Below, piece by piece: positions 38,976-46,118 of a stretch of 64,000 nucleotides of DNA. The stretch is from assembly GCA_051382335.1 (NCBI GenBank), contig JBBCAX010000168.1:11915-75914 (forward strand). The letters are read 5' to 3'. Below the pieces are notes generated by a model. The model saw nothing but the letters and a program-made list of their open reading frames with translations, ran no database searches and had not been told where the DNA came from. This stretch comes from Deltaproteobacteria bacterium TL4. GTDB lineage: Bacteria > SAR324 > NAC60-12. Every line of letters starts with the position of its first letter. Positions within the stretch are counted from its first letter, which is position 1. The position numbers and the translations under genes are program-made.

Positions 38976-39040
38976 TCGCTGTTGTACATTTCCTTCCTAA
39001 GGAACGCAAAAAAAAATAACGCTCACTGGCTTCTGATTTG

Positions 39041-39095
39041 GGCTGAGCACAAGCGTCCCGCCTGCTTTTACGGGCAGGATACCAGCATTCCCAGG
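39041..39095. repeat. REP-like element, family B, copy 2 (inverted)
   Basis: Reverse complement aligns with 26473-26528. Confidence 0.72.
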
Positions 39096-39096
39096 T

Positions 39097-39231
39097 GGTT
39101 GTTCGAGAATATTGAAATGAAGTGTAGGGTGCTGCTGAGCTTGCGAAGCGCACCGAAAATAAGGGGCTTTGGCGACTTTCTGGTGCACTCGCTTCGCTTC
39201 AACGCACCCTACACCCCATTCTCGGACAGCC
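39097..39231. mobile_element. MITE-like element containing a GTAG-type REP pair
   Basis: Outer IR GGTTGTTCGAGAAT / ATTCTCGGACAGCC (12/14 match); inner TGTAGGGTGC...GCACCCTACA (39123-39213). Confidence 0.6.
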
Positions 39232-39456
39232 TTCCAGGAAAGACTTAGCTAAAAGTCATAACCCTCCACTCAAGTTGCGCTTAGAAAGGATACCCGATAA
39301 AGACGGTGGTTTCCGTTGCTTCTGCGCTTTGACCGACATCAATCATGGCAACCAGGGTAAGATCAACCATCTTAAAGCATTATGGATTGGTTTTTAAGCT
39401 AAAAATTTAACTCCAAATTCGCCTATTGAGCATATTCTTGTAGGATAACTCTGGCG

Positions 39457-39981
39457 TCATTGCATTAACAGTAATAATTCAAACCACAATAAAACCGTTC
39501 CAGAGCAGTAATACTGGCAGGAGCTCACAGCACCGATGTTTTGCCACCCTATTCTAAGCCATGAGGTGAATAATAAAGCAAGGCTCCAAATCAAGGCAAT
39601 CAGGACTTGAAGCCAATGAAGAACGCATAGCAGAAATGGTATTTCTGCAAACATTAAAGACCCTGAGTTTGTTTGATTAAAAAAGGTGACGCCTTTATAG
39701 TATTCCACATTCAGAAAAACCAGGGTGAGTAGAATGGAAAGAACGATCCATAATCTAAAACGTGGTTTATTTTTGCTGCTTAATGCTCGTTGAGCAAGGC
39801 CTATCAAGAGCGTTGCCAAAAACAAGGAACCTCCACTCAGCAGAATAGCGACGAGCGGGAATTGAGTGAAAGGATTGAATTGGAGCGAAGAAAGTTGAGG
39901 TTGAATCAACTTAGATACAATAATCAGCATCCAACCTTCTAAAAGAATAAAAATTCCAATTGCTATTTTTCGATGTTCCAT
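39457..39981 (-). CDS. Divergent heme-copper oxidase subunit III homolog
   Basis: RKIAIGIFILLE, RLWIVLSILLTLVFL.VEYY, LCVLHWLQVLI; 5 TM; directly follows the subunit I homolog. Confidence 0.72.
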   Translation of the reverse strand: MEHRKIAIGIFILLEGWMLIIVSKLIQPQLSSLQFNPFTQFPLVAILLSGGSLFLATLLIGLAQRALSSKNKPRFRLWIVLSILLTLVFLNVEYYKGVTFFNQTNSGSLMFAEIPFLLCVLHWLQVLIALIWSLALLFTSWLRIGWQNIGAVSSCQYYCSGTVLLWFELLLLMQ

Positions 39982-39996
39982 ACGGTTGTTCTGTTT

Positions 39997-41715
39997 CTAT
40001 GTTGGTTGAAAAGCATTTCCAAAGCATCCGATGAGGATGATGACAACTCCCATTACAACCATCCAGGTTTGAAGCGCCAGCCCTCCAATGAGTCCCAGAC
40101 AACCAAGACTTAACAGCAAGGGCCAAGGCGAGAGAGGCGTGAGATAAACCTTTCCCGACGCCTTAGGCGGAGTATAAGGGGTATTTTCTCCTTCAGGGGT
40201 GTGTTTCAAGTTCCAGAACGCATTCCGTGCATTGACTTGTGGCACTACCGCGAAGTTATAAGCAGGAGGAGGCGAAGGAATACTCCACTCCAGCGTATGT
40301 CCATCCCAAGGATCCATTTCCTTCTGAGCGACCCCTCGCATTCCACGCATCAAATTGAGTACCCCCGCAAGATTTGCGGCGACGCTGACAAGAATCCCCG
40401 TTCTCACCAAACCTTGTACTGAAGGGGGAACCCACCCCGCAGGATAAATGTAGCCTTCAGAAAGAGAAACCTCGGAAATGGAAAGGAGGCTCAAACTCAT
40501 CAAGTAAAAACCTAAAGAATAAAAAACAAAATGAAGCATGGCCATCTTCTGATCGTACATTTTTCCAAATATTTTGGGAAACCAAAAGTACACTCCGGCA
40601 AATAACGCATTAAGCGTCGTGCCGAAAATCAAAAAATGAAAATGGCTTGTCATATAATAGTGGGACGGGCTTTGCACACTGCCTAAAGAAATAAACTTTG
40701 CCGCACCACTAATTCCACATAAAACAGGAGTAACAAGAGCCATTATGGCAAAAAATAAGGCAATATTAAACGTAAACGTATAGCGCGTAAAGTGCAGTAT
40801 TGCCGCTATCGCCTGAAGACTTAACAGAAAAAACGTGCCTAACATGAATAGAGCGCTTGCCGGATTCAGCGTATCGGATTGTGTAAACAAAGCCATCAGC
40901 CAGGCCAACAGGGCCATGCCCGGAATGAGGGCACTGATCCCTAATTGAAACAGATACCCTTTCAACAAACGCTTGGAACATACAGGGATGATGGTAAGCG
41001 CGATACTTAGAGCAGGGACAACAAGGACGAGTATTTCGGGATGTAGCTTCCAGGATAAGGGCTCAGACCAGGCGAAATCTGCCGTTTGAATGAGAGCGTA
41101 TAACTTCATGGTCCAAAGTTGATCCATTAAGCGCAACAACGCACCTAAGCCGATCAGCGGCCAAACTAAAAGCCACGTTGAACAGGTAAAAATAACAGCC
41201 CAGACAAACAGCGGGATTCGACCCAGACTCATCCCTGGAGCACGTAAATTCCAGATAGTCACCAGGAGATTCAAACTCGTACAAACGATGGAGAGTGACA
41301 GCATCAAAGTGCCTGAGGGAGAACCACTCAGTAATTGAAGGTTATATTCTCCAAACAGAATAATGAGGCTTCCCCATAAAAAGCACCACCACCCGAAAGT
41401 CTGCAAGCGCGGAAGCGCCATGGTTCCCGCACCGATCATCAAAGGAACCAGATAATTAAACAGACCAATCAACAGAGGGTAGAGGACCAGTAATAGGGAC
41501 ATTCCATCGTAAAACGCAAAAAAAGCGGGTTGGGTCTGGGTATACTGAAAATCAGTAATAAAGCGTTGCAGCAGAACGCTTCCGACACCACCAATGACGA
41601 GTAAAACTAAAGCATAAACGATATACAGCAGACCAATACGTTTATGATCAACCGTCAACATCCAACTTAAAGGCCCCCGAGGTTGAAAATAATGTTTGAC
41701 CGAGATCTCTGGCAT
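39997..41715 (-). CDS. Divergent heme-copper oxidase subunit I homolog lacking several metal ligands
   Basis: TVDHKRIGLLY, NYLVPLMIGA, RAPGM..RIPLFVW, HPE, HFH, YFWFPKIFG, TLEWSIPSPPP.YNF; AGGAG before ATG 41715. Confidence 0.9.
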   Translation of the reverse strand: MPEISVKHYFQPRGPLSWMLTVDHKRIGLLYIVYALVLLVIGGVGSVLLQRFITDFQYTQTQPAFFAFYDGMSLLLVLYPLLIGLFNYLVPLMIGAGTMALPRLQTFGWWCFLWGSLIILFGEYNLQLLSGSPSGTLMLSLSIVCTSLNLLVTIWNLRAPGMSLGRIPLFVWAVIFTCSTWLLVWPLIGLGALLRLMDQLWTMKLYALIQTADFAWSEPLSWKLHPEILVLVVPALSIALTIIPVCSKRLLKGYLFQLGISALIPGMALLAWLMALFTQSDTLNPASALFMLGTFFLLSLQAIAAILHFTRYTFTFNIALFFAIMALVTPVLCGISGAAKFISLGSVQSPSHYYMTSHFHFLIFGTTLNALFAGVYFWFPKIFGKMYDQKMAMLHFVFYSLGFYLMSLSLLSISEVSLSEGYIYPAGWVPPSVQGLVRTGILVSVAANLAGVLNLMRGMRGVAQKEMDPWDGHTLEWSIPSPPPAYNFAVVPQVNARNAFWNLKHTPEGENTPYTPPKASGKVYLTPLSPWPLLLSLGCLGLIGGLALQTWMVVMGVVIILIGCFGNAFQPT

Positions 41716-41832
41716 AAACTCCTTTCTGTCTGACAATGATAAAATCTTAAGCCAGTATTAAATTGAACGCACCCTAGCAAAGACAGTGGAATTTTGCAAT
41801 GTTTCTTTCTTACGAACGAAGATCCCGCATCC

Positions 41833-43085: not shown

Positions 43086-46000
43086 TTAGCTTCTTTGAAA
43101 TTCCGCTCGTTCGATCAACTCAATCTGCATATCCCGATTGAGTGTGACAAAGTAAGCGTTATAGCCTGAAATCCGAACCAGTAAATCTTTATAGTTTTCA
43201 GGGTGCAACATTGCGTCTCGAAGGACTGCGGAACTGACAACATTCAACTGAATTTGCATCCCTCCTAATTCCACATAAGACGTTACATAAGCCTTCATAT
43301 TATCCACCGTTTGTTCATGAGTGTCTTCTGCGGAAGGCACAAATTTGATATTAAAGGCAATGTTGTTGTTCATGTGATGTGGATTGAGTTCCGCGACATC
43401 CCGGATGTTGTCCAGCAGATTTTTTGAAGCATGAGATGAAGGCGTCAAACCTGGAGTGAAGGCTTTCCCCGCAAGCCTTCCGGAAGGAAGTGTGCCTGTC
43501 AGACTGCCAAAGGCGACGTGATTGGACATCGACCAGAATCCAGTCGTATAGGGACCTCCACGAAAATTCGTTTTCTGAGCAAAATAATCATGCACAAATT
43601 GAGTTAAGCGATTGGCCATTGCTTTAGCTTCTTCGTCTCCAGAACCGAATTTAGGGACTTTTTTGAGGATGATCGCGTGAAGTTTGGAATGCTCTTCGAA
43701 ATTATTAAGAAGGGCGGATTTCAATTCAGAGAAACTCACAGTTTTTTGATCAAAAACGAGTTTTTTGATCGTCATTAACGAATCCACAATGTCAACCAAG
43801 CCAATGCACGCCACTCCGGACGTATTGTAACGCGCACCCCCTTTTGTGATATCCTTGCCCTTTTCGATGCTTCCCTCAATCATTGACGAAAGTAAAGGCG
43901 TTGGACGAAGAACACTATGGGCTTTTCCAAGGATATTGTTATATTCAACCGACTGATCAATCAGAAACGTCAGTTGTTGGGTGTAGGCGCTGAAAAATGC
44001 ATCAAAGGTTTGAAACGCGCCTTGCTCAATCTCTCCTGTTTCAGGGCCGACTTTCCAATGCATCAAAGGATGATATCCGTTATACAAAGCCATTTCCAGT
44101 GCGGCGACAAGGTTCAACATCATACAGTTGGTGTGTCCCATGTGTTTCCCCGAAATAGTGGGTTCGACACATCCGGTAGCCGCCCAGTCATTCCGATCCT
44201 GTTCCTGGTAATTGAGTTGTTTAATGGCTTCCAGCACAATTTCATCATTGTGAATTGAAGGTGTCGCTGTCGTGATCAGATTGACTTCACAAAGTCGCTT
44301 GAGATACGAATCGCTGTTTTTCAGATGGTGATAACGCGCGTTCACGTTGGGATCACGAATCTTCAACATTTCGGTTACTTTGAGAAAAATGTAAGTCATA
44401 TCGTTCACGGCGTTTTCGCCACTGGGCGTAACGCCTCCCAGGGTAATCGCCTGATCGGAGGAACTTCCTCCAAACAAGTAGTTTCCGATATCAGGTGTTA
44501 ATGGTAAATGATCCGTACAGCGCATGTAAAAACAGCCCACAATCTCAAGAACATGGTGCAGATACGCTGCCTTTGCTTTTGGGGTTTTGAGCTTTGTCAT
44601 ATCCGCCTCAAAATAAGGCTGAAGCCATTGATCCATTCTCCCTAAGGATAACCCCGCATTTGTATTTTCCATGTGCAGGCATACCCATCCAATCCAAATA
44701 GTATTCAGGGCTTCGTCAAGGGTGTTACAACCGTTTTCTGGAGCGGACGCGCAAATTTCGGCAAGGTGTTCGAGTTCCGATTTTCGCTTGGGGTCTTGCG
44801 TCATTTTTGCTTCTGTTTGAGCTTGAAATGATAAGTTTTTACTATAGCTAATCAAGCCTTCCAGACAAATTTGCATGGCTTCCAGCGTAGTTCTTTGCTC
44901 CGTACTTAAGTTTTGATCTTCTTGAAGTTTTTGATCAATTTCATGAATGATTCCTCGTGCGCCAATTTTCAACAATTTAGGAAAATCAGCAATGGTATGA
45001 GAGATCGCGACCGTTTTCCACAAAAAATAAACTGCGAAACGGTCATCTAATTTTTGGCACAGAGGCTCATTATAGTGTTCTCGGACCCACTCCTTAAAAC
45101 AGCGTTTGAACCAATAAGGAAAGACCTCCTTGTGAAGTATTCTGAGATCTTTCTCAGCAACGGAATAAGGGTTTAGTGTCCGCTCAGAGAGCGTTTTCAA
45201 TTCTCCCCAGATCAAGCTTCCATGGGCATCAGGATAAAGGACCACACCAATCGCTTGGGTTGTCGTTGTCCCTGCAATCAGATCGTCTTTGCGAATCATG
45301 GGTTTTTTATTTTCCATCAGATATTTGAAAGCTAACGCTTGTCGAAGTTCAGGAACCCAAGCTTGTTTTGATGAATTTTGTTCGAAGCCATTATGCTGAA
45401 ACCAGCGTGTGAGCAGCAGCGGTCTTTCCACACAGAGTTGCGGCATGATATTAAAATGAATATCCAAAAAATTTTGTAACCGAGGGAATTGTTCCAAGGC
45501 AAACTGAGAAAGAAAAGGATCCTCAAGATGCCGCACCTGATCGGTTTGGGTGGAGGTCAATTCCGCGTGAGGACGCTTCAACACGGGAGCCGGGAGGGAG
45601 GTTCCGTTTTGAGCAATTTCCTTCGCTTTTTCCCTGTCCAACAGACGTTGCGCACGCATCCTTTTTTGATGTTGAGGAGCCAAAAGGAGGGATAAATAGA
45701 AATTGAAAAGCGACATATAGTTCATGTTTCCCTCAATCCGCATTTTTCCATTCATCAGCATCAACAACATTTCATTAGGGCTTACCGTTAAGGCTTCCTT
45801 TGCGCTCTCATCATCACTGTAGATCAAGGTTGCGTTGGCACTAGAGGGAATCTTTGACAGAACCCGCACTTTCCCATCATTGAACTGGATACACTGCTCA
45901 ATGCTTCCGGATTCGGTCCGTATTCCAATAGACGCGTTAATCCAGTCTTCATTGCCGCGTAAATATTTTTTCAATGAGGGCCGAGTGTTGAAGTTCAAGG

Positions 46001-46118
46001 CCATAACCTGTAATAAAAGATGAGCCACCGCATTGGCGATAGTTTTATTTCCTGCAAGAATGCGCTTATAGTGATCCAAAGGTTCACCGGGAAAGAGTAA
46101 ATACAGGGATTGCTTCAT
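43086..46118 (-). CDS. Glycyl-radical enzyme (non-PFL) with N-terminal SCP2-like domain
   Basis: Cys loop ATGCVEP, Gly loop LLVRISGYNAYF, SLGRMDQWL, ITLGG; N-terminal region ending GKMRIEGNM. Confidence 0.9.
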   Translation of the reverse strand: MKQSLYLLFPGEPLDHYKRILAGNKTIANAVAHLLLQVMALNFNTRPSLKKYLRGNEDWINASIGIRTESGSIEQCIQFNDGKVRVLSKIPSSANATLIYSDDESAKEALTVSPNEMLLMLMNGKMRIEGNMNYMSLFNFYLSLLLAPQHQKRMRAQRLLDREKAKEIAQNGTSLPAPVLKRPHAELTSTQTDQVRHLEDPFLSQFALEQFPRLQNFLDIHFNIMPQLCVERPLLLTRWFQHNGFEQNSSKQAWVPELRQALAFKYLMENKKPMIRKDDLIAGTTTTQAIGVVLYPDAHGSLIWGELKTLSERTLNPYSVAEKDLRILHKEVFPYWFKRCFKEWVREHYNEPLCQKLDDRFAVYFLWKTVAISHTIADFPKLLKIGARGIIHEIDQKLQEDQNLSTEQRTTLEAMQICLEGLISYSKNLSFQAQTEAKMTQDPKRKSELEHLAEICASAPENGCNTLDEALNTIWIGWVCLHMENTNAGLSLGRMDQWLQPYFEADMTKLKTPKAKAAYLHHVLEIVGCFYMRCTDHLPLTPDIGNYLFGGSSSDQAITLGGVTPSGENAVNDMTYIFLKVTEMLKIRDPNVNARYHHLKNSDSYLKRLCEVNLITTATPSIHNDEIVLEAIKQLNYQEQDRNDWAATGCVEPTISGKHMGHTNCMMLNLVAALEMALYNGYHPLMHWKVGPETGEIEQGAFQTFDAFFSAYTQQLTFLIDQSVEYNNILGKAHSVLRPTPLLSSMIEGSIEKGKDITKGGARYNTSGVACIGLVDIVDSLMTIKKLVFDQKTVSFSELKSALLNNFEEHSKLHAIILKKVPKFGSGDEEAKAMANRLTQFVHDYFAQKTNFRGGPYTTGFWSMSNHVAFGSLTGTLPSGRLAGKAFTPGLTPSSHASKNLLDNIRDVAELNPHHMNNNIAFNIKFVPSAEDTHEQTVDNMKAYVTSYVELGGMQIQLNVVSSAVLRDAMLHPENYKDLLVRISGYNAYFVTLNRDMQIELIERAEFQRS

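Follow-up and report, generated by a model that had tools for sequence, protein, structure and literature searches.

A non-catalytic pair of haem-copper oxidase subunits I and III retained in two SAR324 genera, possibly as a membrane scaffold

Introduction

Why would a bacterium keep intact genes for subunits I and III of a haem-copper oxidase (HCO) after the catalytic residues of subunit I have been lost? This question is raised by a locus of Deltaproteobacteria bacterium TL4 that lies in a 64,000-nucleotide stretch of DNA, here called the window, to which all positions without another locus label refer. The source genome (TL4) is labeled G000, and G009 denotes a SAR324 genome of the sister genus, which carries an orthologous pair. 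We compared the two proteins with intact oxidases and weighed the roles that might explain their retention.

Gene organization and fold

The subunit I gene (39997–41715, minus strand) encodes a degenerate A1-type HCO subunit I of 572 amino acids, followed by the gene for a degenerate five-helix-type subunit III of 174 amino acids (39457–39981, minus strand). Both frames are uninterrupted and separated by 15 nt, as a preliminary description of this DNA had reported. The AGGAG motif that it had taken for the ribosome-binding site of subunit I was found at 41719–41723 (minus strand), only 3 nt ahead of the ATG. Promoter and terminator scans gave results at chance level. The intergenic region downstream of the subunit III gene (38976–39456) is composed of dispersed repeats; counting the region itself, blastn gave 152 matches to it across the genome at E ≤ 1e-5. 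The frame at 43086–46118 (minus strand) encodes a PFL-like glycyl radical enzyme; an SCP2-like domain at its N terminus scored below the cut-off (E 0.007). An assembly or binning artefact is unlikely, given the similar GC content of locus (0.445), contig (0.439), and genome (0.434) and the orthologue in the sister genus.

Subunit I matches Pfam COX1 with 158 bits and TIGR02891 with 222 bits (cut-off 671), and its scores lie far below the cut-off of every curated family. It comprises 12 core helices and two additional C-terminal helices, and the nearest solved structures by sequence are Bacillus subtilis aa3-600 and actinobacterial aa3 subunit I. The 12-helix fold and the sequence homology are those of the A family. 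A model predicted from a deep alignment (pLDDT 84) superposes with subunit I of bo3, aa3-600, and caa3 at TM 0.82–0.84. Low confidence is found mainly in the periplasmic loops. The deep alignment consists mostly of intact oxidases, and a model from a four-row alignment also matched the fold, at TM about 0.7. The positive-inside topology is kept, with 21 lysines and arginines on the cytoplasmic side and 3 on the periplasmic side.

Loss of catalytic residues

Residue states were read from a 109-row alignment that includes 106 intact oxidases; the Rhodobacter sphaeroides numbers are labels that we set on the motifs. Three metal ligands of subunit I are replaced (H102 by Y69, H333 by M274, and H334 by A275), and further changes affect D132 (T98), N139 (Q105), Y288 (L229), K362 (A305), D412 (S351), and the R481/R482 pair (E420/G421). 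T359 is lost likewise, whereas H284, E286, H419, H421, and N121 are kept. The HPE motif with the equivalents of H284/P285/E286 (residues 225–227; 41035–41043, minus strand) is also present in the G009 orthologue. The HFH motif with the equivalents of H419/H421 (residues 358–360; 40636–40644, minus strand) reads HVQ in G009, where only H419 is left. Metal-ligand histidines thus number three of six in G000 and two of six in G009.

The preliminary description, aligned by eye, had listed the losses of H333/H334, Y288, D132, K362, and R481/R482 and the retention of H284/E286 and H419/H421, and the 109-row alignment agrees with it on each of these residues. Its loss of H102 at a YDG motif stands insofar as neither register offers a histidine, but the position corresponds to the tyrosine of YDG and not to the aspartate: three alignments place H102 on the tyrosine, whereas a four-row alignment placed it on the aspartate. 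Shared K362-to-Gln and H102-to-Asp replacements suggested by the four-row alignment are absent from the 109-row alignment and were dropped as alignment-dependent.

The cross-linked tyrosine is absent from both orthologues, the HPEVY motif being HPEIL in G000 and HPEVM in G009. Neither the D channel (D132, N139, and E286) nor the K channel (K362 and T359) is complete, and of the residues inspected here G000 keeps only E286 and N121. Alignment to the intact oxidases recovered none of the missing histidine ligands, in line with the preliminary description. H333 and H334 are replaced by non-ligating residues and the low-spin site is broken. Subunit I therefore cannot act as a canonical O2 reductase. 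Nor does it have the complete set of sites, two for haem and one for Fe or Cu bound by His, Glu, or Asp, that characterizes NO reductases and variant HCO families.

Orthologue, distribution, and descent

The preliminary description had proposed to judge the pair by orthologues with the same losses, and such an orthologue is found in G009. The pair at L065:6305-8522 encodes intact subunits I and III without subunit II. Its subunit I is 31% identical to that of G000 and also lacks H102, Y288, H333/H334, D132, K362, and the arginine pair; H421 is a glutamine besides. The pair occurs in 2 of the 88 phylum genomes and in 2 of the 45 family genomes. The discriminating search used a subunit III profile, for which the next best match among the 88 genomes scored 56 bits, against 109–118 bits for independent family members on a smaller profile.

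G000 and G009 are sisters in the RpoB tree (support 99), and their subunits I form one clade (support 99), albeit with tip branches of 4–7 against a median of 0.3, at which long-branch attraction is possible. At 25 of the 153 jointly non-canonical columns, both proteins have changed to an identical residue, compared with 9.4 expected (0 of 20,000 shuffles, in a test that ignores site-specific preferences). The loop between helices III and IV is shortened in both. The shared new residues, the common clade, and the sister genomes suggest that the two subunits I share a degenerate ancestor. Among intact types, the II-I-III-IV caa3-type operon of a sister SAR324 family comes closest. A tree that constrains the pair to group with this SAR324 type was not rejected and was 9 log units better than the free tree (p-AU 0.68), which is consistent with vertical descent but is not proof of it. 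The G000 and G009 loci have no neighbors in common; subunits I and III stay paired.

Word-indexed protein searches with subunit I returned mostly intact oxidases (best identity 33%); one of them missed P0157, so these searches are uninformative on absence. All 176 checked matches retain the histidine motifs, and nine flagged by pattern proved to be HxHQ variants. A pattern scan with a three-member subunit III alignment found one intact caa3 operon (L126, metagenome contigs) and two Weissella stretches that we judged to be chance matches. The ESM Atlas gave generic COX3 and COX1 clusters only. The G009-type subunit I is represented by two strain variants, P0157 and P0158, with differences at 10 columns. 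Nine of these fall into the first 126 residues, and a one-residue indel, which is compensated, is among the differences.

Other oxidase-type genes were seen along the way. G009 encodes four oxidase-type systems (G009:C36, C9, C30, and C5), namely an A-type oxidase that has two genes for subunit III, a probable B-type oxidase, a cbb3 oxidase, and the degenerate pair. COX1-family proteins of 460–490 amino acids with an HYH motif and no HH copper pair are encoded at L066:5934-7325 (G009:C27), L067:13392-14873, and L070:1240-2646. Two of these genes lie beside a small upstream gene, which in L067 encodes a monohaem cytochrome c. The three proteins probably represent an HCO-homology family separate from the I and III pair. 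A family relative carries a cluster for copper nitrite reductase and cNOR (norCBQD-like) at L064 (G008:C83:88000-101000).

A subunit III family with new invariant residues

Subunit III has no Pfam match and only a weak match to CyoC (E 6e-4). When the profile of the founders was run in full with HMMER against 1.84 billion representatives, 30 hits resulted, among them three further members (P0128, P0129, and P0134), all of them metagenomic. The five members are 20–37% identical and form a clade (support 99) apart from 19 canonical subunits III, a set made up of 22 of the 25 other hits and one locus protein, minus four sequences without YWH.

Trp-17, Trp-146, Asn-148, Cys-155, and Gly-161 are common to all five members, and the histidine of the YWHF motif is lost in five of five. 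Trp-17 and Gly-161 occur in five of five members but in none of the 19 canonical proteins. Four of the invariant residues (Trp-146, Asn-148, Cys-155, and Gly-161) fall into segment 140–161 (39499–39564, minus strand), which takes the place of the canonical YWHF region. This new motif lies in the loop ahead of the last helix, a loop that by analogy would be cytoplasmic. The G000 subunit III can thus be regarded as a founding member of a small family with invariant residues of its own.

Evidence for selection

Four-fold sites of G000 and G009 are saturated and close to random (RpoB, 0.33 of 460 sites), which corresponds to ∼1.7 substitutions per site (Jukes–Cantor). In a neutral simulation, the subunit I frame was already closed in 1943 of 2000 runs at 0.05 substitutions per site, and no frame out of 2000 was open at 0.1. 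The subunits I of G000 and G009 nevertheless align with a score of 620, whereas none of 100 codon shuffles exceeded 8.5. Codon positions add weak evidence, with 0.60 at position 2 and 0.36 at position 3, against 0.49 and 0.30 in codon-shuffled controls.

The pair does not appear to be in fresh decay, because an intact orthologous pair exists in a synonymously saturated genus and the subunit III family has invariant residues. Constraint on the pair seems weak overall, because the identity between G000 and G009 is 31%, compared with 77% for CcoNO and RpoB, and the tip branches are long. Slow erosion might produce such a picture: the pair would then be a relic of no useful role, subject to weak selection only against a misfolded or truncated membrane protein and heading for the loss that the other family genomes would already have undergone. 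The extreme rate of change, the occurrence in 2 of 45 family genomes, and the 10 differences with a compensated indel between the near-identical strain proteins P0157 and P0158 would agree with this. However, deletion of the genes would end such a cost at once, both frames have outlasted synonymous saturation, and five divergent subunits III have new invariant residues in common, so that we consider a relic quite unlikely. With its catalytic residues lost and its frame and fold kept past neutral saturation, the pair is very probably non-catalytic and under selection. The selection for a non-catalytic role that the preliminary description had suggested from divergence without stops thereby gains support from the open frames in G009, despite saturated four-fold sites.

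Genome context

The G000 assembly consists of 445 contigs and is 100% complete by markers. It contains two COX1-family genes, subunit I of the pair and that of an intact cbb3 oxidase (a ccoNO-P operon with ccoG-like genes). The canonical oxidase operon for which the preliminary description would have had the genome searched is thus this cbb3 operon, the only intact HCO of G000. No oxidase subunit II was found in the whole assembly; the one frame with a COX2-domain match, 711 codons long and located elsewhere, most likely encodes NosZ. Profile searches of the assembly gave no CtaA, no CyoE/CtaB above the cut-off, and no canonical COX3. Intact subunits II and IV and CtaG, used as tblastn queries, had no match at E ≤ 0.01. 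The absence of subunit II and assembly genes, noted in the preliminary description for the neighborhood of the pair, therefore extends to the assembly as a whole (CtaA, CtaB, CtaG, and subunits II and IV). Without subunit II, CtaA, CtaB, and a canonical subunit III, the pair cannot be completed into an aa3 oxidase in G000. Subunit II and haem O/A synthesis are both encoded in G009, for a separate intact operon.

These data bear on whether the pair might still reduce O2 or NO with non-canonical ligands. The fold is kept, and variant-ligand families exist in the HCO superfamily. However, the three lost ligands have become Tyr/Leu, Met/Ile, and Ala/Ile, which differ between the orthologues, and G000 has no subunit II or other electron-entry partner. 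An active reductase is therefore scarcely credible.

Both G000 and G009 encode a full ActA–F cluster for alternative complex III (ACIII), and no bc1 cytochrome b match was found in G000. The act genes are not beside the pair; they lie on another contig in G000 and 33 kb away in G009. The pair stands alone, without linkage to an oxidase operon or to that of ACIII, and in G000 nothing else remains of an A-type oxidase.

G000 also carries a magnetosome cluster (L175, G000:C333:11000-30700), in which MamK, MamM, MamB, and MamQ score over the NCBIfam cut-offs and MamE (two), MamP, MamT, MamO, MamA, and MamS below them. Magnetochrome domains occur in 4 of the 88 phylum genomes, in two separate clades. 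A magnetosome membrane protein that handles redox state, pH, or iron in magnetite formation is conceivable, in view of this mam cluster and of the fact that both carriers are among the four magnetochrome genomes. But the carriers are sisters and so count as one event, the other two magnetochrome genomes (G003 and G007) lack the pair, and the pair lies outside the mam cluster. We consider such a role very unlikely, and a link of the pair to magnetotaxis was rejected as a single phylogenetic event.

Sidedness of conservation

We assigned a membrane side to 148 canonical-invariant columns of subunit I, using manually drawn helix limits that were checked by hydropathy. In the cytoplasmic half, 55 of 80 such residues are retained in G000 and 50 of 80 in G009, whereas the periplasmic half keeps 19 of 68 and 18 of 68 (Fisher p of 1e-6 and 1e-5, respectively). 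Likewise, the orthologues are identical at 100 of 271 positions on the cytoplasmic side but at 32 of 202 on the periplasmic side. The kept side comprises cytoplasmic loops and a C-terminal domain that together wrap the core. On the periplasmic side, which is lost, lie the haem propionates, the Mg site, and the interface to subunit II. In subunit I, selection is focused on the cytoplasmic half, and in subunit III on the new residues. The pair amounts to a natural experiment: without catalysis, what counts in an oxidase core is the cytoplasmic face together with subunit III, a subunit of still disputed function.

Only 10 of the 68 periplasmic-half invariants are kept in both orthologues, H284, E286, and H419 among them. 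These three residues face the old a3-CuB site, and their joint retention is suggestive, whereas the retention of the six ligands as a set is not significant. The pair might accordingly be a single-haem protein with a b-type haem in the old a3 site, bound by H419 with H284 as distal ligand in the absence of CuB, and serve as an O2, NO, or CO sensor or as a haem store. Three new cysteines common to both orthologues (Cys-111, Cys-145, and Cys-333) would agree with this, as would the conservation of the cytoplasmic side, where a signal would be passed on. On the other hand, the two of six ligands kept in both proteins are close to the periplasmic background of 10/68 (about 0.2, binomial), the propionate-binding arginine pair is gone, H421 is lost in G009, and no conserved signaling gene lies beside the pair. 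A single-haem protein is thus unlikely, although it deserves some weight. Its more specific form is somewhat more doubtful: subunits I and III would bind one haem through H419 and H284 and report O2, NO, or redox state via the new cytoplasmic surface of subunit III, in magnetotactic SAR324 bacteria that track oxygen gradients. We know of no earlier sensor built from a cytochrome c oxidase, and the pair would be the first if this were true.

The cavities emptied of haem and copper might instead form a path, with the retained E286 in the middle of the membrane as its gate, for protons, ions, or a small solute. The 12-helix fold and the positive-inside topology would permit such a conduit, and in G009 a gene for a 729-amino acid permease begins 14 nt past subunit III. 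However, the orthologue of this permease is on another contig in G000, the residues of the D channel (D132 and N139) and of the K channel are gone, and the periplasmic half is the least conserved part of the protein. We regard a conduit as decidedly improbable.

A structural role

Among the options raised in the preliminary description, scaffolding best fits this pattern of conservation, whereas haem binding is weaker than suggested there, with H421 replaced by glutamine in G009 and the ligands kept in both proteins near the periplasmic background. Our preferred reading, to which we give a probability of roughly 45%, is that subunits I and III of a former caa3-type oxidase have been kept as a cofactor-free membrane scaffold, most likely on ACIII. 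Taken by itself, a structural role of the pair seems just on the probable side, and ACIII as its partner is a tentative proposal. In the scenario that we envisage, the common ancestor of the two genera would have shifted O2 reduction to cbb3 and other oxidases. Subunits II and IV would then have been lost, together with all features of the periplasmic face that served them. Subunits I and III would have been retained for a partner in the membrane that by then relied on their surface. Subunit I would now merely provide the fold on which subunit III is mounted, and the useful contact would be made by subunit III, the piece that touches complex III or ACIII in solved supercomplexes.

Published accounts offer precedents for such contacts. 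In Flavobacterium johnsoniae, ACIII is described as meeting the oxidase via a five-helix subunit III, and in Mycobacterium smegmatis subunit III (CtaE/F) is described as contacting complex III (PMC8361435). In the ACIII-caa3 supercomplex of Rhodothermus marinus, subunit I/III is reported to adjoin ActC (PMC5928083). Retention of ligand-less respiratory subunits, with structural roles proposed for them, is mentioned for Acetobacteraceae (PMC10715153).

Several observations limit how far the scaffold can be assigned to ACIII. Co-occurrence is uninformative, with ACIII in 80 of the 88 phylum genomes and the pair in 2. ACIII elsewhere therefore needs no such part, and in neither carrier is the pair linked to the act genes. 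G009 also encodes an intact A-type oxidase that could in principle dock on ACIII, and neither ActC nor ActD stands out (83% and 68% identity, respectively, between G000 and G009). The sidedness in subunit I, which was read from two independent sequences only, could reflect the needs of folding and topology alone, and the survival of H284, E286, and H419 in both proteins is not required by a pure scaffold. If the pair does dock on ACIII, it would represent a supercomplex architecture that outlives the chemistry it once served.

Correct assignment of such genes also matters for annotation. The database label for the G009-type subunit I is “cbb3-type cytochrome c oxidase subunit I,” and mislabeled genes of this kind inflate or distort inferred oxygen metabolism; G000 has cbb3 as its only HCO. 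The reach of this effect is limited, the family being small and its hosts apparently uncultured.

Comparison with known systems

The pair resembles A1-type caa3 and aa3 oxidases (B. subtilis aa3-600, PDB code 6KOB; Escherichia coli bo3; Thermus thermophilus caa3, PDB code 2YEV; and the SAR324 II-I-III-IV operons) in its fold, the order of subunit I then III, the cytoplasmic motifs, and HPE. Like these references, with which it is 31–33% identical, it has two extra C-terminal helices on subunit I and a five-helix subunit III. Unlike them, it lacks three of the six ligands, the cross-linked tyrosine, both channel entries, and the arginine pair, has a shorter III–IV loop, and comes without subunits II or IV and, in G000, without a haem A/O synthase.

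Members of the superfamily with altered histidine patterns, the HCO-homology families and NnrS, are said to have been described by Pei et al. in 2014 and are reportedly ancient separate families. By contrast, the SAR324 pair can still be recognized as derived from an A1 oxidase and includes subunit III.

A ligand-less COX1-like protein (CtaD) with a proposed structural role is reported to be retained in Acetobacter spp. (PMC10715153, citing Matsutani et al. 2014). Like that protein, as portrayed there, the SAR324 subunit I is an A-type subunit kept without its full set of metal ligands. Whereas the Acetobacter gene is described as having lost all ligands and clustering with ctaB, the SAR324 proteins keep two or three histidines and occur together with a subunit III; ctaB is absent from G000. 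The two belong to different phyla and probably arose separately. Articles that discuss SAR324 respiration make no mention of such a gene in the portions available (PMC4782131 and PMC9031357), and the accessible parts of two further articles hold nothing decisive on the pair (PMC8552683 and PMC4013037). Our literature search, which covered mainly openly available papers, found no description of the SAR324 I and III family. Retention of a ligand-less COX1 is thus already known as a kind from Acetobacter, and the SAR324 family is apparently undescribed.

The ACIII–oxidase supercomplexes of F. johnsoniae and R. marinus contain a catalytic oxidase that receives electrons via subunit II, whereas the SAR324 pair has no subunit II. 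There, contact runs via subunit III or I/III, as proposed for the SAR324 pair. What the pair shares with these systems is a five-helix subunit III and an ACIII encoded in both of its carriers (PMC8361435 and PMC5928083).
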